Below are positions 1-48,024 of a DNA stretch of 52,399 nucleotides, piece after piece (position 1 is the stretch's first letter; each line of letters starts with the position of its first letter). The notes below the pieces were generated by a model that saw only the letters and a program-made list of their open reading frames with translations, made no database searches and was not told where the DNA came from. A program made the position numbers and the translations under genes. Source of the DNA: Candidatus Saccharimonadia bacterium (GTDB lineage: Bacteria; Patescibacteriota; Saccharimonadia; UBA4664); contig DATDME010000098.1 of assembly GCA_036518915.1 (NCBI GenBank), positions 1 to 52,399 of the forward strand. Reading direction: 5' to 3'.

Positions 1-141
1 GCCCTCACCGTGCTCGTGAGTTCAGGATCGATCACTCCTCGTTCGCTGTATCACCGGATACAGCTTACTCGGTCCGACCGATCCTGAATCACCCGAATCA
101 TCGGTGCGAAAAGACACGTTTTGTTTTGGGATGGCTATAGC
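1..141. repeat. Palindromic intergenic element, copy A (long variant; left end cut by window edge)
   Basis: 1-25 equals the reverse complement of 19865-19889. 96-127 matches the reverse complement of 19829-19864. About 70 bp extra (26-95) forms nested hairpins (21-30 ttcaggatcg with 80-89 cgatcctgaa; 47-64 ctgtatcaccggatacag). Ends in TTTTGTTTTG-N5-GCTATAGC (118-141). Confidence 0.6.
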
Positions 142-191
142 AAGATTCTTGCACTTTTGCTTGGCTGGGCGATCGGAAGTTGGCTGCAATA

Positions 192-200
192 TGATATAAT
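192..200 (+). promoter_or_regulatory. Candidate extended -10 box (TGATATAAT) upstream of pnp leader
   Basis: Exact TGnTATAAT. No good -35 at 17-bp spacing. The same 9-mer recurs at 2936-2944. Confidence 0.35.
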
Positions 201-463
201 CGCCTCTGTACAGCCAGGATTTACGAGTAAATTTTGGGGCCGGTTTGAGTGGGGTACGTGTTAGAGCTTTGGGATTAACAGCGGTTAATCTCTTGTCCCT
301 GGCACTTACTCGCTGGCTCCTCAAGGTACGGACGCATGTACCAAGATGCGTTGCAAGGAACGGACGAAGCCCGCAAGGGAGGCGTACTGAGCGTACGCTG
401 ACCGCGGATTGAAGTCTGCGACGCCGCAAGGCGCTTGGGACAAGTGGCCGTTGAAAGGACGAG
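201..463 (+). promoter_or_regulatory. Long, probably structured 5' leader of pnp
   Basis: About 260 nt with no credible ORF. Two GNRA-capped hairpins (370-379 cccGCAAggg; 422-433 cgccGCAAggcg) plus ggtac..gtacc and gcgtac..gtacgc stems. SD aaagga sits just before the ATG at 464. Confidence 0.35.
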
Positions 464-2593
464 ATGGGAGAAATTATCCACCCGTTTGGCGGCAAGACTC
501 AGCAGTTTAAAACTGAGTTTTGCGGCCGTGAGTTAGTAATTGAAACCGGCAAGATGGCATTCTTGGCGGATGGTGCGGTGACCGTGCGTTACGGCGACAC
601 CGTGGTGCTGGGTACGGCGACGGTGAGCAACCAGCCGCGTGACGGCATTGACTTTTTCCCGCTGCTGATTGATTACGAAGAGCGCTTTTATGCCTCGGGT
701 AAGATCTCGGGTTCGCGGTTTATTAAGCGCGAGGGTCGGGCGAGTGAGCATGCTACCTTGAGCGCCCGGTTGATTGACCGGCCGATCCGGCCGCTGTTCC
801 CCAAGGGCTACCGGCACGACGTGCAAGGTGTGGCGATGGTGGTGTCGGCCGACCTGGAATATGCGGCTAACATTGTGGCCATGACGGCTGTATCGACGGC
901 GCTGATGCTGAGTGGTGCGCCGTTTGAAGGCCCGGTGGCGGGCGTGAAAATTGGTCGGGTTGATGGCGAGTTGGTGGCCTACCCGAGCGAAGAGCAAATG
1001 GCGGTCAGTGACCTCGAACTAACCGTGGCCGGTACCAAAGACGCCATCATGATGGTGGAAGCCGGCGCGAACGAAGTCGATGAGGCCACCATGATTGCCG
1101 CCATTGAGTTGGCGCATAAATCCATTCAGCCGCTGATTGATCTGCAACTGGAGATCGTGAAGGCTTTGGGCGCCAAGGAAAAGCCGTACGAGCTCATGCT
1201 GCCCAATGAAGACCTCAAGAAAGACATTGAGAAGTTTTTGCAGGGTAAGCTCGGTCCGGCAGTGCGCCATCAGGACCACTATCAGCGCCACAACTCCATT
1301 AAAACCTTGCTTGAAGAAGTGCTGGTGGAGTTCCCGGAGACCGAGGAGCGCAAAAAAGCCGATGTGGAGGTGGCGTTCACCAAGGTGATCGACATGGAGA
1401 TCCGCCGGGCGATCATTGAAGACGGCGCCCGTCCGGACGGCCGTAAGATGGATGAAATCCGGCCGCTGAGCGCCCAGGTGGGCGTATTGCCGCGGGCGCA
1501 CGGCTCGGCGGTCTTTACCCGCGGTACCACCCAGGTATTGAATGTGACGACGCTGGCGTCTACGACCTACGCCCAGCTCATCGACACGATGGAACTCGAC
1601 ACCACCAAGCGCTACATGCACCACTACAACGCGCCGGGTTATTCCTCGGGCGAGGTGCGGCCGATGCGGTCGCCGGGCCGTCGCGAGATTGGTCACGGGG
1701 CATTGGCGGAGCGGGCCTTGCTGCCGGTGATTCCGGCAGTGGAGGACTTCCCGTACACCATTCGGACCGTGAGTGAGGTGCTGTCGCAGAACGGTTCGAG
1801 CTCAATGGCGTCGGTGTGTGGTTCGACATTGTCGCTGATGGACGCCGGTGTGCCGATTCGCAAGCCGGTGGCCGGTATTGCCATGGGCCTCATCACCAAG
1901 GGTGACGGCGGTTACGTGATCTTGAGCGACATTCAGGGCGCTGAGGACTTTGCCGGCGACATGGACTTTAAGGTGGCCGGCACGCCAGACGGCATTACGG
2001 CGCTGCAGATGGACATTAAGGTGAAGGGCATTACGCCCGCCATCATGAAAGACGCGTTGGCTCAGGCTCATGAAGGCCGAAAGGTCATCATGAAGGCCAT
2101 CACCGACGAGTTGGCCGCGCCGCGAGAGGAGCTGAGCAAGTACGCCCCGCGTATCGATAAGATCATGATCAACCCCGAGAAGATCGCTTTGGTGATCGGT
2201 AAGGGCGGCGAGACGATCAACAAGATTATTGCCGAAACAGGCGTGGAAATTGACATTGAAGACTCTGGGCTGGTGATGATTGCCTCCACGAACCCCGAGG
2301 GTTCGAAGCGGGCAATTGAGATCATTCGCGGGATTACCGAGGACCCGGAGATTGGCCACGTGTACGATGGAACGGTGGTGCGCTTGATGGAGTTTGGTGC
2401 CTTTGTAAACATCCTGCCAGGCAAAGACGGCCTGGTGCACATCAGCCAGATGGCCGACAAGCGCGTCGAGAAGGTGACTGACGTCGTGAAGATGGGCGAC
2501 AAGGTGAAGGTGAAGCTGGTCGACATTGACTCGCAAGGCCGGCTGAATCTGAGCATGAAGGCCGCGGCTGACAAGGGTGAAAAGCGTGACTAG
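464..2593 (+). CDS. pnp: Polyribonucleotide nucleotidyltransferase (PNPase)
   Basis: 709 aa. Two RNase PH-like halves, GDMDFKVAGT motif, C-terminal KH and S1 (GTVVRLMEFGAFVNILPGKDGLVHISQ) domains. SD present. Confidence 0.97.
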   Translation: MGEIIHPFGGKTQQFKTEFCGRELVIETGKMAFLADGAVTVRYGDTVVLGTATVSNQPRDGIDFFPLLIDYEERFYASGKISGSRFIKREGRASEHATLSARLIDRPIRPLFPKGYRHDVQGVAMVVSADLEYAANIVAMTAVSTALMLSGAPFEGPVAGVKIGRVDGELVAYPSEEQMAVSDLELTVAGTKDAIMMVEAGANEVDEATMIAAIELAHKSIQPLIDLQLEIVKALGAKEKPYELMLPNEDLKKDIEKFLQGKLGPAVRHQDHYQRHNSIKTLLEEVLVEFPETEERKKADVEVAFTKVIDMEIRRAIIEDGARPDGRKMDEIRPLSAQVGVLPRAHGSAVFTRGTTQVLNVTTLASTTYAQLIDTMELDTTKRYMHHYNAPGYSSGEVRPMRSPGRREIGHGALAERALLPVIPAVEDFPYTIRTVSEVLSQNGSSSMASVCGSTLSLMDAGVPIRKPVAGIAMGLITKGDGGYVILSDIQGAEDFAGDMDFKVAGTPDGITALQMDIKVKGITPAIMKDALAQAHEGRKVIMKAITDELAAPREELSKYAPRIDKIMINPEKIALVIGKGGETINKIIAETGVEIDIEDSGLVMIASTNPEGSKRAIEIIRGITEDPEIGHVYDGTVVRLMEFGAFVNILPGKDGLVHISQMADKRVEKVTDVVKMGDKVKVKLVDIDSQGRLNLSMKAAADKGEKRD

Positions 2594-6229: not shown

Positions 6230-6424
6230 CCGATTTCGTGATTGAGCTAATGCCTACATAAAGGGCAGTATGCGAGAATAAGAACAACAAATGTGTTCAA
6301 GCAAAAGCATCTTGGTCTGAATGGGCTGGGCGCTTTTGCAGTTGTATAATGATCGCGAAAGGACATGATTATGCGGGATGTTAAAACGAGCGAGTAATGG
6401 GCGGGTGATGAATATTGGCCGCAA

Positions 6425-6765
6425 TTGAGTTTCGTAAATGTTAGTGGCGATGGGGCGGCGCAGGCTTTTCCGGAAGGGGCGAGCCAAGCTGATGGTGAGG
6501 CAATTGTGCAGACCTGGCAAAAGGCGGCCGTGCTTCGCGTGACCCCGGACATTCCAGTGTATTGGGGATTCATGGCTGGCGAAGCACAGGCCCAATTTTT
6601 GAACCAGCCAGCGCAAACGCAGGGTGGGCAGTTTGCGGTGCGGGGGGCCGTGATGACGTGAAGTTCTTCGTAATCGCGGCTGATTTGAAATCGCGGCCAA
6701 CGTTAGAGCTTGTAGAGGTGGTCGACTTGAATGAACCTAAATACCAGGATTTGCCGTTGTATTAA
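6425..6765 (+). pseudogene. Hypothetical small ORF whose frame breaks at a G6 run (6642-6647)
   Basis: Frame 1 (6425-6661) reads ..VTPDIPVYWGFMAGEAQAQFLNQPAQTQGGQFAVRG then stops. The adjacent frame continues DDVKFFVIAADLKSRPTLELVEVVDLNEPKYQDLPLY* to 6765. One extra G would fuse them (about 113 aa). No SD is visible and the start is uncertain. Confidence 0.3.
6599..6764 (+). repeat. 166-bp direct repeat, left copy
   Basis: Matches 7441-7606 (offset 842 bp). The first 133 nt are identical and the 3 mismatches all fall in the last 33 nt. Confidence 0.95.
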
Positions 6766-7087: not shown

Positions 7088-7436
7088 TTACTTCTGGCAT
7101 CTCCAGCCGAATGCGTTCCAGTACTTGATGATCGCTCGGCTTCCAGGGTGCGCGATACTGCAGTACTTCTGCATATCGATTCCCCCAAGGGTATTGATGG
7201 TCACGCCCAGAGGAATCGAGACGGTGTTGACATTGCAAAACCAGGAGCCTGGGTCAGTGAAGCTTGTGAAATCAGACCAGGCTTTGGGGTTGTTCCACGT
7301 GTAACGACAAGCCTGATTGGTGTCAATACCCCCATTCTGTTGAGGCGGATGCTGTCAGTGCCGGACCTTCGATAGTGATTCCCATCGCGAGACTCAAGGC
7401 TGCGACAGGTATCGCCGCGGTTCGAAGTTTCTTCAC
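7088..7436 (-). pseudogene. Putative secreted 4-Cys small protein, frame broken at a G5 run (C5 on + strand, 7329-7333)
   Basis: GTG 7436 gives VKKLRTAAIPVAALSLAMGITIEGPALTASASTEWGY*, which is signal-peptide-like with ASA. The next frame continues IDTNQACRYTWNNPKAWSDFTSFTDPGSWFCNVNTVSIPLGVTINTLGGIDMQKYCSIAHPGSRAIIKYWNAFGWRCQK* to TAA 7090-7088. The span is 349 nt, so removing one G gives a 115-aa ORF. Confidence 0.45.
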
Positions 7437-7440
7437 TCGA

Positions 7441-7606
7441 TTGAACCAGCCAGCGCAAACGCAGGGTGGGCAGTTTGCGGTGCGGGGGGCCGTGATGACG
7501 TGAAGTTCTTCGTAATCGCGGCTGATTTGAAATCGCGGCCAACGTTAGAGCTTGTAGAGGTGGTCGACTTGAATGCACCTAAATACCAGGGTTTGTCGTT
7601 GTATTA
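7441..7606 (+). repeat. 166-bp direct repeat, right copy
   Basis: See 6599-6764. Includes the same G6 run (7484-7489). Confidence 0.95.
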
Positions 7607-18935: not shown

Positions 18936-19066
18936 CCATGCGGCTTGTGTTGTCATACCCGTATACGGGTGAAGACAGGGTGGTCATTCACGACATAATG
19001 CAAACCGCAGGTTGTCGCTTTGACCGCCGGGTTGGTAGCTGTTGATTGGTCATGCATAGGAGTGTC

Positions 19067-19825
19067 GTGAAACGACGGCTGGATCAGCTACTCGTTGAGC
19101 GGGACCTGGCGCCCAGCCGGACGCAGGCGCAGGCATTAATTATGGCCGGACTGGTGTCGGCGGACGGCCGGCGCCTGGATAAGCCCGGCTTGATGGTGCC
19201 GGAGGATTTGGTGCTGCAGGTGAAGCATCAGCCGCGGTATGTCAGCCGCGCCGGCGAGAAGCTGGCGAGTGTGGTGGAGGCGCTGGGCTTGGAATTTGCC
19301 GGCCAAACCGTGCTGGATGTGGGCTCATCAACCGGCGGCTTCACAGACTTCGCGCTGCAGCAGGGCGCGGCCCGGGTGTACTGCGTGGACGTCGGCACCA
19401 ACCAGTTGGCCTTTAAGTTGCGTCAGGATGAACGGGTGGTGGTGATGGAGCGAACGGATATCCGCGCCGTGACGCTCGGTGATGGTGCAACTGGGGGTGT
19501 GGGTGCGGCGGCCGCTCTGCCCGCGGCGGTGGACATGGCGGTGATGGATGTGTCGTTTGTGTCACTGACGAAAGTACTTGAGGCCACTCGGGCTCTCGTA
19601 AAGCCGGGCGGAGTGATTGTGGCGATGGCTAAGCCGCAATTTGAGGCAGGTAAAGCGCTGGCAGATAAATATCATGGCGTGATACCGCTAGGAGCGGAGC
19701 GTGAGGCTGTGCTTGAAGAGCTACGACATTGGCTCCTGGAGCATGGCTTCACTATTCTGGCCGAGGCAAATTCGGGTTTGGCTGGGGCTGAGGGTAATGT
19801 GGAACGATTTTTTAAGCTCCTATAG
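19067..19825 (+). CDS. tlyA: TlyA-family rRNA 2'-O-methyltransferase
   Basis: S4-like N-terminus (KRRLDQLLVERDLAPSRTQAQALI) and SAM motif DVGSSTGGFTD. GTG 19067 with SD aggag is preferred over the ORF-track start at 19046. Confidence 0.85.
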   Translation: MKRRLDQLLVERDLAPSRTQAQALIMAGLVSADGRRLDKPGLMVPEDLVLQVKHQPRYVSRAGEKLASVVEALGLEFAGQTVLDVGSSTGGFTDFALQQGAARVYCVDVGTNQLAFKLRQDERVVVMERTDIRAVTLGDGATGGVGAAAALPAAVDMAVMDVSFVSLTKVLEATRALVKPGGVIVAMAKPQFEAGKALADKYHGVIPLGAEREAVLEELRHWLLEHGFTILAEANSGLAGAEGNVERFFKLL

Positions 19826-19914
19826 CCCCCGCAAAACAAAACGTGTCTTTTCGCACCGATGATTCTGAACTCACGAGCACGGTGAGGGCACACGTTTGTT
19901 TTGCGGGGGCTATA
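19820..19914. repeat. Palindromic intergenic element, copy B (compact, complete)
   Basis: Left arm tatagcccccgcaaaacaaaacgtgt (19821-19846) pairs with acacgtttgttttgcgggggctata (19890-19914), with one bulge. The core contains a ctcac-gagcacg-gtgag hairpin. It overlaps the tlyA stop codon and lies between convergent tlyA and ychF. Confidence 0.75.
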
Positions 19915-19978
19915 CTGCCTTGATGGCATTATTAGTGCGGCAGAATGCTTGCCATGGCGGTCTCAAACGGGGAGCGGT

Positions 19979-21055
19979 TTAGACATTAAACCGGAACTCC
20001 ACAACATCGCCGTCTTGCATAATGTAGTCTTTGCCTTCGAGGCGGACTTTGCCGGCGGCTTTGGCGGCGGGGTAGGATCCAGCGGTGATGAGGTCGGCGT
20101 AATTGACAATCTCGGCTTTGATGAAGCCGCGCTCAAAATCGGTATGGATGACACCGGCGGCTTGGGGGGCGGTGGCGCCTTGGGGGATGGTCCAGGCGCG
20201 GGTTTCTTTGGGGCCGGTGGTGAGGTAGGTTTGGAGGCCGAGGATGTGGAAGCCGGCACGGGCCAGCTGGCTTAAGCCGCTTTCGGCCTGGCCGAGAGAA
20301 GCTAGTAATTCAGCGGCTTCAGCGGCGGGTAAATCCATTAAATCGGACTCAACTTGGGCGCAGAGGAAGATGGCTTGGGCGGGTGCAACAGATTGGGAGA
20401 GCTGCTCTTGAATACTTTTGTTGTTCAAGCCGTCTTCATCTAAATTGAACACAAAAATAAATGGTTTGGCGGATAACAGTTGTAAGTCGCGCAAGGGTTC
20501 AAGGTCGATGGCGGTGGCGGACAGGAGCTGGCCGCGGCCCAGCGCGTCTTGAGCGGCGAGGAGCGCTTGCTTGAGGGCAGCGCCGGCTTTGGGGTCGCGC
20601 TTGATCTCACCGTCAATGCGGGCGAGGCGGTGCTCGACGGTCTGCAGGTCGGCCAGCATCAACTCAGTATTGATGGTTTCAATATCGCGGGCGGGATTAG
20701 CCTCGCCGTCGACGTGGATGACGTCAGCATTATGGAAGGTCCGCACGACTTGCACGATGGCATTGGCTTCCCGGATATGGCTGAGGAACTTATTGCCGAG
20801 GCCCTCGCCGGTACTGGCGCCGCGGACAATGCCGGCAATGTCCACGAAGGTGACGCTGGCTGGCACAATCTTGGCACTGCCGGACAGCGTGGCGAGCTGG
20901 TCAAGCCGATCGTCGGGCAGGGGAACGACTCCAACATTGGGCTCGATGGTGGCAAAGGGATAGTTTGCGGCCAGGACATGGTTTTTGGTGAGGGCGTTAA
21001 ATAATGTGGACTTGCCGACGTTCGGTAGGCCCACAATCCCAAGTGATAGGCTCAT
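19979..21055 (-). CDS. ychF: Ribosome-binding ATPase YchF
   Basis: 358 aa. [19 protein letters not shown]-loop and a C-terminal TGS-like domain. Confidence 0.96.
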
Positions 21056-21133
21056 AGTGACCGTATTTTACCTGAGACTAGCCGGGTTGTAAAAAATGCG
21101 CTACAGTAGCGTCAAGTAAGCGTAAGTGGATTA

Positions 21134-21658
21134 GTGCCGCAAGTCATCAACAAACGAGGTGTGTCGGGCCGTCATTTGTTTGTCGGGATAGGGGCGTTTG
21201 CGGGTTTGTTGGCATTGGTGGCCGGAGTGGGAATTTGGGTGTGGCTGAATCGTGGTTCGGCCCAACCGAGCATGGAGGAGCTATCGAACCAAGTCAGCCG
21301 GCTAGAGTTTCAGGGCAAGTTCGATGAAGCGATCCGTATCAGCAAGTCAAAATATAATACGCTCAAAACGGATAAAGACCGCTACCAGTTGGCGCTGGGT
21401 ATTGGGGCGATTTACGAAATGAAGAGTGATTATCAGCAAGCTATTACGTGGTATCAGAAGGCGAAGGGCCTGTCGTCCAATACAGCCAAAGATCGGGCGG
21501 TGGCAAATGGGCTCGCGCGGTGCTATGAGAAGCTGGGGAATAAGGCTCAGGCCCACCAGTATTATCAGATAATGTTTGATACGGTTGATAAATCAAAAAT
21601 TGGCTGGCAGGCTGAGGTAAATTGGTACACTGCTGCCTTGAAACGGACTCAGTCATGA
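21134..21658 (+). CDS. Membrane-anchored TPR-repeat protein
   Basis: 174 aa. N-terminal TM (LFVGIGAFAGLLALVAGVGIWVWL), then TPR-like repeats (..DYQQAITWYQKAKGL.., ..CYEKLGNKAQAHQYYQ..). Confidence 0.65.
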   Translation: MPQVINKRGVSGRHLFVGIGAFAGLLALVAGVGIWVWLNRGSAQPSMEELSNQVSRLEFQGKFDEAIRISKSKYNTLKTDKDRYQLALGIGAIYEMKSDYQQAITWYQKAKGLSSNTAKDRAVANGLARCYEKLGNKAQAHQYYQIMFDTVDKSKIGWQAEVNWYTAALKRTQS

Positions 21659-28162: not shown

Positions 28163-28297
28163 CTACGGCTGCTCGACGTGCTCGGCCGCTTCGTGGGCGA
28201 TTCGCTCGGCCGTGGTCGACGGCTTCCGGTAGACGCGGGGGCCCTGGAGATTCTCCTTGACGTGCCGGACGACCTGTATGAGCTGGTGGTGGGACAT
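28163..28297 (-). CDS. Candidate 44-aa antisense ORF in the pilB-pilT spacer
   Basis: MSHHQLIQVVRHVKENLQGPRVYRKPSTTAERIAHEAAEHVEQP. GAGG lies immediately upstream, with short spacing. It is embedded in a very GC-rich stretch where chance ORFs are common. Confidence 0.2.
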   Translation of the reverse strand: MSHHQLIQVVRHVKENLQGPRVYRKPSTTAERIAHEAAEHVEQP

Positions 28298-28353
28298 GCC
28301 TCGCTCAGCCCAGCTTGTCTGGCATCACCTGGGTCATCGTAATCTAAACCGCC

Positions 28354-28376
28354 ATTTTGTTTTGCGTTGCTATAGC
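28354..28376 (+). repeat. Arm-only copy (C) of the TTTTGTTTTG-N4-5-GCTATAG motif
   Basis: attttgttttgcgttgctatagc, 54 nt upstream of the pilT start. No partner arm was found. Confidence 0.45.
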
Positions 28377-35716: not shown

Positions 35717-36664
35717 TTAGCTTGTTTTGTGTTTGCTATAGGAGCTAGGGTGGCTGTGGAAGCGCTCATGCACGCTTTTAAGCTGTGGATCGGTCACGTG
35801 GGTGTAAATTTGCGTGGTTTGGATGTTAGCATGGCCCAGCAGGCCCTGGACGCTGCGTAGGTCGGCGCCGTTATGCAGGAGGTCTGTCGCAAAGCTGTGG
35901 CGCAGGGTGTGCGGCGTGACGTCTTTGATGAGGCCGGCAGCCGTGGCATAGCGTTTGACGAGGCGCTGGACGGAGCGAGGTGTGAGGCGCTGGTACATGC
36001 CGCCCTCGGACTCGTCCTGCGAGCCGGAGTAGTGAATAAACAGCGGCTTGCCGTCGTCGGTGCGGGTGGCCAGGTATTTGCCGAGCCAATCGGCGGCTTG
36101 GGGTGAGATGAAAATGGGGCGGTCCTTTTGGCCCTTGCCGCGGACCATAAATTCGCGGCGCTCGAGGTTAACTTGGGAGCGGTCGAGGCTGACGAGTTCG
36201 CTGACGCGCAGGCCGCCAGAAAACAGCAGTTCAATGACGGCGCGGTCGCGCAGACCGATGGGATTCGTGGTATCAATGGCGCCCAGTAAACGGGCCACTT
36301 CGTCTTGGTCGAGGAAGGTGACTTGGGGCCGGGTGGTTTTGGCGAGCTCAATTTTGGCGGAATCCAGAGCTTTGATGTCGCGCTTGGCGAGGTATTTGAG
36401 GAAGCTGCGCAGCGCGATCAGGTGGTAGTTCTGAGTGGTTTTGGTGAGCTCGTGACCCTGATTATCCTTGATGCGGTTGAGGTGCAGGCGCCACTGGCGG
36501 ACCATTTCGGCGTCGAGCTTGGCGATGTCGCAGTCTTCGGTGAACTCGACCAGGCGCTGGAGGTAGTGATCGTAGTTGGCGATGGTTTTTTGTGAGCGGT
36601 TCTGCTCAATCTCAAGATGTTCGAGGAAGTCGGTGACAAGCTCAGAGAGGAGTAGTTCGGCCAT
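35717..36664 (-). CDS. Tyrosine recombinase, XerC/XerD type
   Basis: MAELLLSELVTDFLEHLEIEQNRSQKTIANY.., with catalytic residues in ..HTLRHSFATDLL.., LLGHANIQTTQIYTH. ATG 36664 is preferred over 36700. Confidence 0.88.
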   Translation of the reverse strand: MAELLLSELVTDFLEHLEIEQNRSQKTIANYDHYLQRLVEFTEDCDIAKLDAEMVRQWRLHLNRIKDNQGHELTKTTQNYHLIALRSFLKYLAKRDIKALDSAKIELAKTTRPQVTFLDQDEVARLLGAIDTTNPIGLRDRAVIELLFSGGLRVSELVSLDRSQVNLERREFMVRGKGQKDRPIFISPQAADWLGKYLATRTDDGKPLFIHYSGSQDESEGGMYQRLTPRSVQRLVKRYATAAGLIKDVTPHTLRHSFATDLLHNGADLRSVQGLLGHANIQTTQIYTHVTDPQLKSVHERFHSHPSSYSKHKTS

Positions 36665-36730
36665 AACGTTAGATAAATCCTTATGGTGTAATGGTATCAT
36701 GATGGGCTCCGGGCCTGATACAATGCCGGT

Positions 36731-44934: not shown

Positions 44935-45011
44935 GGGCTCGTGGTGTAGAGGCCTAACATGCCTCCCTGTCACGGAGGAGATCGCCGGTTCGAATCCGGT
45001 CGAGCCCGCCA
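44935..45011 (+). tRNA. tRNA-Asp (anticodon GTC)
   Basis: GGGCTCG..CCTCC-ctGTCac-GGAGG..GCCGG-TTCGAAT-CCGGT-CGAGCCC-G-CCA. Confidence 0.93.
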
Positions 45012-45020
45012 AAGTAAGAA

Positions 45021-45043
45021 CCTCACCGTAAGGTGGGGTTTTT
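45021..45043 (+). terminator. Intrinsic terminator after tRNA-Asp
   Basis: cctcacc-gtaa-ggtgggg followed by TTTTT. Confidence 0.8.
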
Positions 45044-45162
45044 ACTTTGGCTGTGTCGGGCTCGCCGGATGAGAACCTTAGGTTCGGTGGACGAGGAGCG
45101 CAAAAACAGACGAGTTTGGCTCTACAGAGCTATTTTTGTTCGGCCCAGCGGCGGTAGGCGGG

Positions 45163-46382: not shown

Positions 46383-46799
46383 GTGGTAAGCCGATGGGTG
46401 GCAATTTCGGGCGGTACGGTTATGCTGGCTGTGGTGGCGGCTGGTCTGGCGGAGGCGACCTTGGCTTTCGGTCAGGTCGGACGAATCAGTGATGACGCGG
46501 GCGTCCGCCATGCCGTGGTCACGCTCACGCCAAAGCTCACGGCTACCCCCGTGCCAACACCGGCTCCCACGGTGACGCCGACGGTGGCGCCTACCCCGGT
46601 ACCAACGGCGGTGGCGCCTCATGCGGTCACTAATTCATTTGTGCACCTGCGCCAGAGCAACTCAACGAGTTCGGCTATTTTGATGGATCTCAACGGCGGC
46701 ACGATCGTTACCTTGCTGCCGTACAGCGATTCCCAGTGGCAACAAGTGCAGTACAATGGCCTGACGGGCTACATTTTTAGGTCTTACCTGATGTACTGA
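46383..46799 (+). CDS. Membrane-anchored SH3b-domain protein
   Basis: 138 aa. N-terminal TM, a Pro/Thr/Val linker (TPVPTPAPTVTPTVAPTPVPT) and a C-terminal SH3b-like VHLRQSNSTSSAILMDLNGGTIVTLL..WQQVQYNGLTGYIFRSYL. Confidence 0.7.
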   Translation: MVSRWVAISGGTVMLAVVAAGLAEATLAFGQVGRISDDAGVRHAVVTLTPKLTATPVPTPAPTVTPTVAPTPVPTAVAPHAVTNSFVHLRQSNSTSSAILMDLNGGTIVTLLPYSDSQWQQVQYNGLTGYIFRSYLMY

Positions 46800-46800
46800 T

Positions 46801-46826
46801 CTACAGCCCGCGCAAAACAAAACCTG
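46801..46826. repeat. Diverged copy (D) of the element-B left arm
   Basis: ctacagcccgcgcaaaacaaaacctg matches 19820-19845 ctatagcccccgcaaaacaaaacgtg at about 22 of 26 positions. The following cctcacttgctcacc resembles the B-core ccctcaccgtgctcgtgag. No clear partner arm. Confidence 0.45.
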
Positions 46827-46873
46827 CATCCTCACTTGCTCACCTGTGGTTTACGCGACGAGCGCATTGGCCG

Positions 46874-46882
46874 TGATATACA
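46874..46882 (+). promoter_or_regulatory. Candidate extended -10 (TGATATACA)
   Basis: Same TGATATA core as 192, 2936 and 10748. Lies about 100 nt upstream of the 58-aa ORF. Confidence 0.3.
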
Positions 46883-46985
46883 AAAGAATTTCCTAAGAGC
46901 CGCGAGCGGTTTGTAAGTTACTCTAATGGACGATGACCCCGGTTCCGACATACTAACGGTGTTAGTTTAATGAGGGAACAAAATA

Positions 46986-47162
46986 GTGGGCCGGTCAAGA
47001 ATTCGCAAAATCAAATCTGCTAATATCCAAAGCCAACAGCAGGACCTGTACGACGTGTTTTACATGAGCCCGGATGAAGCTCGTAAGGCGCTCGAACAGA
47101 AGTACGAATTTCTCGCTGACCGTTACGAACGGCGGTTTCCTAAGTACAAAGGCATCAGCTAG
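46986..47162 (+). CDS. Unlisted 58-aa basic/helical small protein
   Basis: GTG start. MGRSRIRKIKSANIQSQQQDLYDVFYMSPDEARKALEQKYEFLADRYERRFPKYKGIS. SD gaggga sits 9 nt upstream and a strong terminator follows. The 64-aa minus-strand ORF (46995-47189) is taken as its shadow. Confidence 0.5.
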   Translation: MGRSRIRKIKSANIQSQQQDLYDVFYMSPDEARKALEQKYEFLADRYERRFPKYKGIS

Positions 47163-47182
47163 CCCAGGACTCTTGCTCAGGC

Positions 47183-47211
47183 AAGGCACCGGCTTCGGCC
47201 GGTGCCTTTTT
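47183..47211 (+). terminator. Intrinsic terminator
   Basis: aaggcaccggc-ttcg-gccggtgcctt followed by a T-run. Confidence 0.85.
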
Positions 47212-47292
47212 GTGTTGGATGACTGAGTCTGCGGAGGCTCCGGAGGCTGGCAAAGTCCGGCCTTTTTTGTTAAGCTGATCTGGTTAAAATAT

Positions 47293-47487: not shown

Positions 47488-47507
47488 CTCACTGTGGGCT
47501 CAAGCCT

Positions 47508-47581
47508 GCGGGTATAGTACATCGGTAGTATGCGACCTTCCCAAGGTTGAGAGACGGGTTCGATTCCCGTTACCCGCTCCA
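47508..47581 (+). tRNA. tRNA-Gly (anticodon CCC)
   Basis: GCGGGTA..CGACC-ttCCCaa-GGTTG..ACGGG-TTCGATT-CCCGT-TACCCGC-T-CCA. Confidence 0.88.
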
Positions 47582-47607
47582 AGGAATTATTCGTTTGATG
47601 ATATATA

Positions 47608-48024
47608 ATGGCAAGCATGAAGACCTTCCCGCCTGTGGTTGCGGCCCGGCGGATTTTTCAAGACGTTAGTGCTCGCGTGATAGCTTCGCGGTTCTTCCGC
47701 GACGGCTTGTCGATGGGCCTGTTGGGGCTGGCAGTGGTGCTCAATGTGGTGACCATGGCCTGGCTGCTGCTGAGGGTGCATCCGAATGATGTGCCGGTGC
47801 CGGTGAGGTACTCAAACTTGCTGGGTGGTTTTGACCAGCTGGGCCCATGGTACTGGCCATTTGTGATTGCCGGGTTTGCTCTCTCAGTTACGCTGTTCAA
47901 TGCTGGGTTTGCGTATTATAGCTTCCATCGGAGCCGGCTGGTGAGCTTCTTTTTGCTGGTGACATCGAATGTGGTGGGTGCGTTTAGCTTGATTGTGTCC
48001 TCGGCGTTTGGGGTGGTGCGGTGA
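47608..48024 (+). CDS. Small polytopic membrane protein, translationally coupled to the GT2 gene
   Basis: 138 aa and about 4 TM. Its stop overlaps the GTG start of the next gene. Confidence 0.6.
   Translation: MASMKTFPPVVAARRIFQDVSARVIASRFFRDGLSMGLLGLAVVLNVVTMAWLLLRVHPNDVPVPVRYSNLLGGFDQLGPWYWPFVIAGFALSVTLFNAGFAYYSFHRSRLVSFFLLVTSNVVGAFSLIVSSAFGVVR

Follow-up and report, generated by a model that had tools for sequence, protein, structure and literature searches.

Probable IS630-derived miniature inverted-repeat elements in a Saccharimonadia contig and in other Patescibacteria

Repeats of the window and the genes beside them

The contig DATDME010000098.1 (assembly GCA_036518915.1) of a Candidatus Saccharimonadia bacterium, analysed as one stretch of 52,399 nucleotides (nt; hereafter the window), carries a set of palindromic repeats, named here copies A to E. 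The genes near them include pnp, which lies downstream of copy A, tlyA and ychF, which converge on copy B, pilB and pilT on either side of copy C, an open reading frame (ORF) with an SH3 domain before copy D, and a xerC-like ORF whose 3' end contains copy E. From their sequence, these repeats are very probably non-coding transposable elements of the miniature inverted-repeat type (MITEs), with ends that match those of an insertion sequence (IS) of the IS630 family from candidate-phyla-radiation (CPR) bacteria. This kind of element is well known, both as IS630-family ISs and as TA-flanked MITEs; the present family appears to be undescribed. Among the papers searched, none connects MITEs or IS630 with Saccharibacteria or Patescibacteria in a way that bears on this case. 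The original prediction had recognised no described element here, which is consistent with this result and with the lack of an Rfam match.

The presence of palindromic intergenic repeats, as first proposed for copies A to D, is supported by motif counts against shuffled sequences and by a repeat finder. With up to 3 mismatches, the pattern TTTTGTTTTG-N5-GCTATAG has 5 matches in the window (0.16 in shuffles), and the gapped core TTGTTTTG-N3-7-GCTATAG has 4 exact ones (0.00 in shuffles); the octamer TTGTTTTG occurs six times, on every occasion within the motif. As TTGTTTTG-N4-5-GCTATAG, the motif is counted six times in the 52 kb, against an expectation of none. The repeat finder matches copies A and B over two stretches, one of 46 nt (93% identity) and one of 29 nt (97%). 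The copies first listed all stand, and the list was incomplete: it overlooked a sixth arm at 35719-35740, that of copy E, which the repeat finder delimits at 35719-35741. In total, the window contains two elements and three remnants, with the following features:

1..137, - strand: copy A, long-form MITE (family length 166-169 nt), from the profile match and an alignment with 20 elements of other genomes
138..139: TA target-site duplicate of copy A (GCTA/TA/G), a TA flank as in the whole family; its partner lies beyond the window
19821..19822: left TA target-site duplication of copy B (C/TA/TAGC...GCTA/TA/C)
19823..19912, + strand: copy B, short-form MITE of 90 nt, from the sequence, the repeat finder, the fold and the family alignment
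19823..19846, + strand: left terminal inverted repeat of copy B (TAGCCCCCGCAAAACAAAACGTGT), from the sequence and the repeat finder
19889..19912, - strand: right terminal inverted repeat of copy B, with an A-tract one base shorter than that of the left arm
19913..19914: right TA target-site duplication of copy B (C/TA/TAGC...GCTA/TA/C)
28293..28372, - strand: copy C, an intact end at 28354-28372, whose spacer has 4 nt and not 5, and a half of the long form that has decayed (TA at 28373-28374)
35719..35738, - strand: copy E, solo terminal repeat (TA at 35739-35740), from the repeat finder and motif scans
46804..46833, + strand: copy D, solo terminal repeat with TAGC mutated to CAGC (TA at 46802-46803)

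Copy A is cut by the start of the window, about 30 nt short of its far end. A family profile of 168 positions, built from about 20 long elements of other genomes, matches it at 140..7 (nhmmer, E = 2.5e-17), and because the alignment covers positions 1-134 of 168, copy A is, judged by its alignment, the canonical long form truncated by the window edge. Copy B, by the same comparison, is an apical-deletion derivative of that form, i.e., A minus an apex of about 70 nt. This reverses the polarity first suggested, in which A was B plus a nested insert of roughly 70 bp: A fits the long-form profile, and it is B that is without the central 70 nt or so. The ancestral MITE would have been an imperfect hairpin of 166-169 nt, from which the 90-nt copy B would have emerged by loss of the apex between short direct repeats, and the deletion is indeed located between the similar repeats GATGATTC and GATCGATCC. 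In Nomurabacteria, a separate deletion of this type, between TATAGA repeats, gave rise to a 95-nt form (locus L043; L-numbers denote individual loci of other genomes). The arms of B measure 20-26 nt and are complementary at 100% over 20 nt. A nested insert in the literal sense is seen elsewhere, in a 227-nt family member (L055 6767-6993) that, unlike copy A, has an extra segment of 58 nt in one arm.

Copy A is placed in the leader upstream of pnp (464..2593, + strand), with the - strand as its better-folding strand. Read-through transcription of this leader (window 1-463) would yield an RNA that contains the MITE hairpin; a hairpin in the pnp leader of E. coli is cleaved by RNase III and serves autoregulation. 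The gene contexts originally given for the other copies hold. Copy B overlaps the stop codon of tlyA and faces ychF. The 3' end of an ORF of 99 amino acids, which has no Pfam match, overlaps copy C, itself 54 nt upstream of pilT; the profile match of C (28375..28293, positions 1-84, E = 0.02) is no more than suggestive in the part beyond the arm. Copy D begins 2 nt past the stop codon of the SH3-domain ORF (46383..46799, + strand). Copies C, D and E would represent ends left behind after later deletion and decay; degenerate partner arms, sought within 1.4 kb of each, were not found. Between the solo end D and a tRNA-Thr gene, some 460 nt (46834-47292) contain no ORF of at least 80 amino acids and no similarity to a transposase.

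Family members in other genomes and the probable parent insertion sequence

Searching a species-representative genome collection with CTATAGC-N4-5-CAAAACAAAAC returned 96 loci, and this check for copies in relatives, which had been proposed from the start, shows that many Patescibacteria loci carry the motif as inverted pairs. About half of the loci belong to metagenome-assembled genomes (MAGs) of Patescibacteria, including Saccharibacteria/Saccharimonadia, Nomurabacteria, Moraniibacteriota, Uhrbacteria, Woesebacteria and Adlerbacteria; the others look like chance matches, around 35 being expected in the collection for an 18-base pattern. At up to 3 mismatches, the outer distance of the pairs is constant at 166-169 nt in many CPR loci, while some pairs span 64-96 nt and four lie approximately 1,100 nt apart. 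The short elements range from 64 to 330 nt, with a mode of 166-169 nt, a length shown by about 20 of them in Saccharimonadia, Nomurabacteria and other MAGs. In all, about 26 short elements of other genomes are bounded by the terminal repeat seen in the window.

All elements, irrespective of their length, have the layout N/TA/TAGC-N5-CAAAACAAAAC ... GTTTTGTTTTG-N5-GCTA/TA/N, in which the outermost base is variable. The dinucleotide TA flanks both sides of every paired short element listed and of copy B, for which a check of target-site duplications had been suggested. Copies from the same genome (the pairs L022/L023, L080/L090 and L043a/b) are 96-98% identical, in contrast to their flanks, where identity is 40-50%, i.e., at chance level, and the similarity breaks off at the TA. 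None of the short elements at the loci of other genomes lies inside a gene; their intergenic settings are convergent in 3 cases, tandem in 9 and divergent in 7. Two loci differ in layout: in the Nomurabacteria MAG of L043, two different copies have left-hand flanks of 40 nt (677-716 and 1630-1669) that are 85% identical, and L046 (2220-2293) has two arms in the same orientation, 51 nt apart. These layouts suggest composite or nested repeat arrangements.

The widely spaced pairs reveal the partner of the MITEs. In L042, L082 and L097, an inverted motif pair of about 1.1 kb encloses a single ORF of 341-342 amino acids, which is frameshifted in L006. The protein matches DDE_3 of Pfam (E = 2e-23), and the three transposases scanned match the NCBIfam model NF033545, "IS630 family transposase", with 178-191 bits at a cut-off of 100. 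When metagenomes were scanned with an alignment of these transposases, 80 loci were retrieved; in 28 of them, both repeats were present, 1078-1125 bp apart. TA is found at both ends of 27 of these 28 metagenomic ISs and of 3 of the 4 from the genome collection (L042 has AA at one end), a count that is not fully independent since the search pattern contained the TA. Altogether, 32 full copies of about 1.1 kb with the same terminal repeats were recovered from Patescibacteria MAGs and metagenomes. The short elements share with this IS their ends of 23-28 nt, up to about 50 nt at the transposase-proximal end, and have no coding capacity. In this IS630-family IS, the conserved motif TAGC-N5-CAAAACAAAAC(C/G)TG constitutes the terminal inverted repeat, which the transposase would recognise, and the adjoining TA the duplicated target dinucleotide. 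The label "MITE-like", given to the repeats in the original prediction, is thus borne out by a cognate IS that encodes a transposase, by TA duplications and by near-identical copies with unrelated flanks.

In IS630-family elements such as ISY100, a single gene encodes the transposase, which binds the terminal repeats and is the sole protein required, and insertion takes place almost exclusively into TA, which is duplicated (PMC2170065). The parent IS resembles members of this family, which belongs to the Tc1/mariner superfamily (ISY100, IS630), in its single transposase gene, its length of about 1.1 kb, its inverted repeats and its TA duplication (PMC2170065), whereas the window copies, of 90-168 nt, are devoid of a transposase. 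By extension from the IS630 family, a transposase supplied in trans would bind both repeats of the MITE via an N-terminal helix-turn-helix domain, excise the element by double-strand breaks and reinsert it at a TA.

The presence of a DDE transposase also bears on other explanations for the repeats. The label "REP-like", the alternative first offered, would make them REP/BIME repeats mobilised by RAYT, an IS200/IS605-like tyrosine transposase. REP/BIME are intergenic palindromic repeats, as are these, but the present elements are 90-168 nt long with terminal repeats of 23-28 nt and TA duplications, and not hairpins of 20-40 nt; moreover, their partner protein is an IS630 transposase of the DDE type, and the IS copies showed no RAYT-like gene. 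This label is extremely improbable. Hardly more credible is that the motif acts as a cis-regulatory DNA site (promoter or operator) or as an uptake sequence for the type IV pilus/competence machinery encoded in the window. A short, conserved motif in intergenic positions would suit this reading, as would the proximity of pilB, pilT and pilC, with copy C 54 nt upstream of pilT. However, the motif occurs in inverted pairs bounded by TA, which enclose a transposase gene in 32 loci; the arms of B are both directed into 3' ends of genes that converge there; the spacing of the hexamers, read directly, does not suit a sigma-70 promoter, and a scan finds none in the element. With six sites in 52 kb, the motif would be about ten times sparser than known uptake sequences. 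Sigma-70, extended -10 and UP-element promoters were considered in either orientation and dropped, the spacings being unsuitable and the arms of B being such that they would fire into gene 3' ends.

Several results weigh against a derivation of the window copies from this IS. No transposase gene was detected in the 52-kb window by tblastn, and no intact IS was seen in any MAG labelled as Saccharimonadia, the intact or partial copies being labelled as Patescibacteria group, Adlerbacteria, Uhrbacteria or simply "bacterium"; a current source of transposase for this genome is therefore hypothetical. A window-specific 34-mer had 0 matches in the metagenome collection. No precise empty site could be aligned in three relatives, which are too distant and carry a gene for a HAD-type hydrolase at the position of B. 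Finally, a compensatory, strand-asymmetric hairpin over the full length of the element is not required by IS630 cut-and-paste, so that transposition alone may not be the whole story. A tblastx comparison of the IS-bearing loci with the window and its relatives showed too few common genes to assign a taxonomy.

Some family members are found on contigs with other labels, namely those of MAGs assigned to Corynebacterium, Pseudonocardiaceae, Limnocylindria, Bdellovibrionales and Gammaproteobacteria (L089 7020-7115; L060 1137-1304; L055 6767-6993; L033 7838-7991; L058/L073/L075). These could be mis-binned Patescibacteria contigs or reflect transfer into other bacteria; Saccharibacteria live on Actinobacteria. 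The 168-nt MITE of L060, a contig of 1.5 kb, adjoins a divergent DDE transposase (218-1135) that is 27-28% identical to the IS630 partner and could represent a second, distant transposase lineage with the same ends.

If the repeats are IS630-derived MITEs, very small and reduced genomes still hold an IS630/MITE system. The conservation of the ends over Saccharimonadia, Nomurabacteria, Moraniibacteriota, Uhrbacteria, Woesebacteria and Adlerbacteria points to an exchange of mobile DNA among episymbionts. From a practical perspective, the analysis provides boundaries and a name for a repeat that otherwise confuses the annotation of Saccharibacteria and other CPR genomes. As markers, the elements may help to type strains and to recognise contigs that were mis-binned, and the IS with its ends of 23-28 nt is a candidate native transposon tool for Patescibacteria genetics.

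Hairpin fold, strand asymmetry and transcript ends

The fold proposed as a check for copy B was computed: the hairpin is very stable (-54.7 kcal/mol, z = -7.7, for the + strand; -53.7 kcal/mol for the - strand), and it is placed where tlyA and ychF converge, in their 3' regions. A bidirectional terminator, as envisaged in the original prediction, would consist of an A-tract, a long hairpin and a U-tract on either strand, and the elements might be, or have been recruited as, intrinsic terminators of this kind. In its favour, CAAAACAAAAC stands before and GUUUUGUUUUG after the body of the hairpin on each strand, the fold of B reaches about -54 kcal/mol on both strands, B is located between convergent genes, and D and E come directly after ORF ends. 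Nevertheless, a consensus terminator scan of 19000-21200 did not call B, and the T-rich tracts with which each of its strands was said to end belong to the inverted repeat, being its GTTTTGTTTTG part. The U-tract is itself paired in the predicted fold. Intrinsic terminators are defined by a short G+C-rich stem, a loop of 3-8 nt and a T-run directly after the stem, a description that B does not fit: past its full stem, the + strand reads CTGCCTTGA and the - strand GGAGCTTAA, with no T-run. Furthermore, divergent (7) and tandem (9) intergenic members are as many as or more than the convergent ones (3), copies A and C lie upstream of genes, and solo arms are unable to form a hairpin. Because the gene contexts are mixed, there is no sign of a dedicated terminator, and termination is a rather unlikely explanation for the elements.

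The long form raises a different question, namely whether the 168-nt element, besides being a MITE, is a functional, strand-specific structured nucleic acid, retained as an RNA hairpin or as a hairpin of single-stranded DNA. The consensus hairpin of 18 long elements comprises 63 pairs, 35 of which show compensatory changes; paired cells amount to 93.5%, compared with 79% in shuffles, and the covariation score is 0.439, compared with 0.174 in shuffles (0 of 500 reach 0.439) and 0.06-0.12 in slid controls. One strand folds better than the other in all 18 elements (mean -84.6 versus -69.5 kcal/mol), as it does in the consensus (-65.9 kcal/mol, versus -40.5 for the complement), and the non-Watson-Crick cells of this strand are G-U in 100 cases and A-C in 16. 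The N5 spacers of the two arms also differ less in MITEs (mean 0.67, n = 24) than in full ISs (mean 1.59, n = 32; p = 0.017). On the other side, since the copies are related by descent, neither the conserved G-U positions nor the count of 18 out of 18 represent independent events, and the two halves of a palindrome can also covary owing to a foldback origin or to gene conversion from arm to arm. Read by hand, the better-folding strand has no consistent orientation to neighbouring genes, no promoter was identified in the element, and there is no match to an Rfam family. In the window, only four tRNAs pass the gathering threshold of Rfam, and in permissive scans B and the element of L047 match only miRNA-precursor models, with 18-27 bits against thresholds of 100-171.

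Retention for such a function, in addition to mobility, is conceivable though doubtful. As RNA, the hairpin could serve as a stability or RNase III element or regulate the transposase. That the full-length fold is under selection as a strand-specific structured RNA or single-stranded DNA hairpin across several Patescibacteria classes is improbable on this evidence; the roles of such a fold would be those of an RNase III/stability module, of a regulator of the IS630 transposase or of a structure needed by the transposition machinery. Overall, a single-strand function of the long form is a possibility to be held with considerable doubt. If true, such a role would be unusual, since hairpins are not known to be used in IS630/mariner transposition. 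Genes like those for 6S, SRP or Y RNAs were also considered, on account of the long closed hairpin, and dropped in view of the multiple copies per genome, the TA flanks, the transposase partner and the absence of an Rfam match.

Effects on host genes, known analogues and further features

In the sequence itself, tlyA terminates at a TAG that consists of the first three bases of copy B (19823-19825); in the absence of B and of one TA, tlyA would be two codons longer, ending in ...KLLLP and a stop codon. At this position, the tlyA genes of relatives have short, variable tails, and in loci L012 and L048 the element likewise donates the stop codon. Copy E, in turn, encodes the last 7 codons (YSKHKTS) of the xerC-like ORF (35717..36700, - strand). 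The repeat thus creates or replaces gene ends, as in the tlyA stop and the xerC-like tail. It also breaks assemblies: L001 and several IS copies stop at contig edges. An exact search with the PNPase of the window matched no record, and did not yield the rest of copy A. An exact YchF match is found on a 1.3-kb Logan contig that terminates within copy B.

Three syntenic Saccharimonadia relatives share the gene order rpsF-ssb-rpsR-efp-tlyA...ychF, with tlyA 72-75% identical, and have no copy of the family within 12-21 kb around tlyA. Between tlyA and ychF, all three (L098 10725-11531, L099 10741-11990 and L101 10749-13383) encode a HAD-type hydrolase, some also a NUDIX protein or an acyl-CoA synthetase. 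In the window, the MITE and 64 nt (19826-19978) replace this HAD-hydrolase region, and a search for a remnant of the hydrolase beside B detected none. Comparison of these loci points to a gene loss at the MITE site between tlyA and ychF. Elsewhere in the window, a weak HAD-hydrolase-like tblastn match (47493-47774, - strand, E = 0.07) is probably due to chance.

The closest behavioural analogue of the family is given by the Correia elements of Neisseria (CREE/NEMIS), which are non-coding palindromic MITEs inserting at TA (PMC2649163; PMC10969869). They come in size classes, a long one of 153-157 bp and an internal-deletion form of 104-108 bp; single repeats of 26 bp are interpreted as fragments of whole elements, and no mobilising transposase is known (PMC2649163). 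They form hairpins when transcribed and have been linked to gene disruption and gene loss (PMC2649163; PMC10969869). Similarly, the present family has classes of 166-169 and about 95 nt and the solo arms C, D and E, and copy B lies where relatives carry a HAD-hydrolase gene. Unlike CREE, however, it has a cognate IS630-family IS with identical ends. The hosts belong to different phyla, CREE being restricted to Neisseria and the present host being a member of Saccharimonadia. The core ends of CREE, CCGGTACGG and TCAGGACAA (PMC2649163), are absent from A, B and the family consensus, which have no sequence relationship with them. Promoter, IHF-binding and RNase III functions have been shown for CREE.

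The cyanobacterial Nezha and plant Stowaway elements are comparable in a different respect, being short, TA-flanked elements that share only the terminal repeats with an IS630/mariner-type transposon. Both are linked to IS630/mariner. They differ in their hosts and sequences, and the present family keeps a full-length hairpin unusually strongly across Patescibacteria classes. Nezha is listed at about 130-170 bp (PMC3184786). The ERIC/YPAL repeats of enterobacteria, finally, measure about 127-168 bp; they are imperfect palindromes that have TA on either side and occur in size variants, and they are transcribed as hairpins that alter mRNA stability (PMC3184786; PMC10969869). The present elements resemble them as imperfect palindromes of comparable length with TA ends and size variants, but show no sequence similarity to them. 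A cognate transposase is not known for ERIC.

Two further features of the window were observed outside the family. A direct repeat of 166 nt with 98% identity is present at 6599-6764 and 7441-7606, 842 nt apart, and spans the 5' ends and upstream regions of two - strand ORFs without Pfam match (6254..6700 and 7201..7578). It may reflect a recent duplication or a conversion between small paralogues, in a row of four ORFs of 123-148 amino acids. In addition, a hairpin at 45001-45058, with arms of 27 nt that are 81% complementary and a loop of 4 nt, starts within the 3' end of a tRNA-Asp gene (44935-45011), is followed by a T-rich stretch and is probably the terminator of this tRNA.

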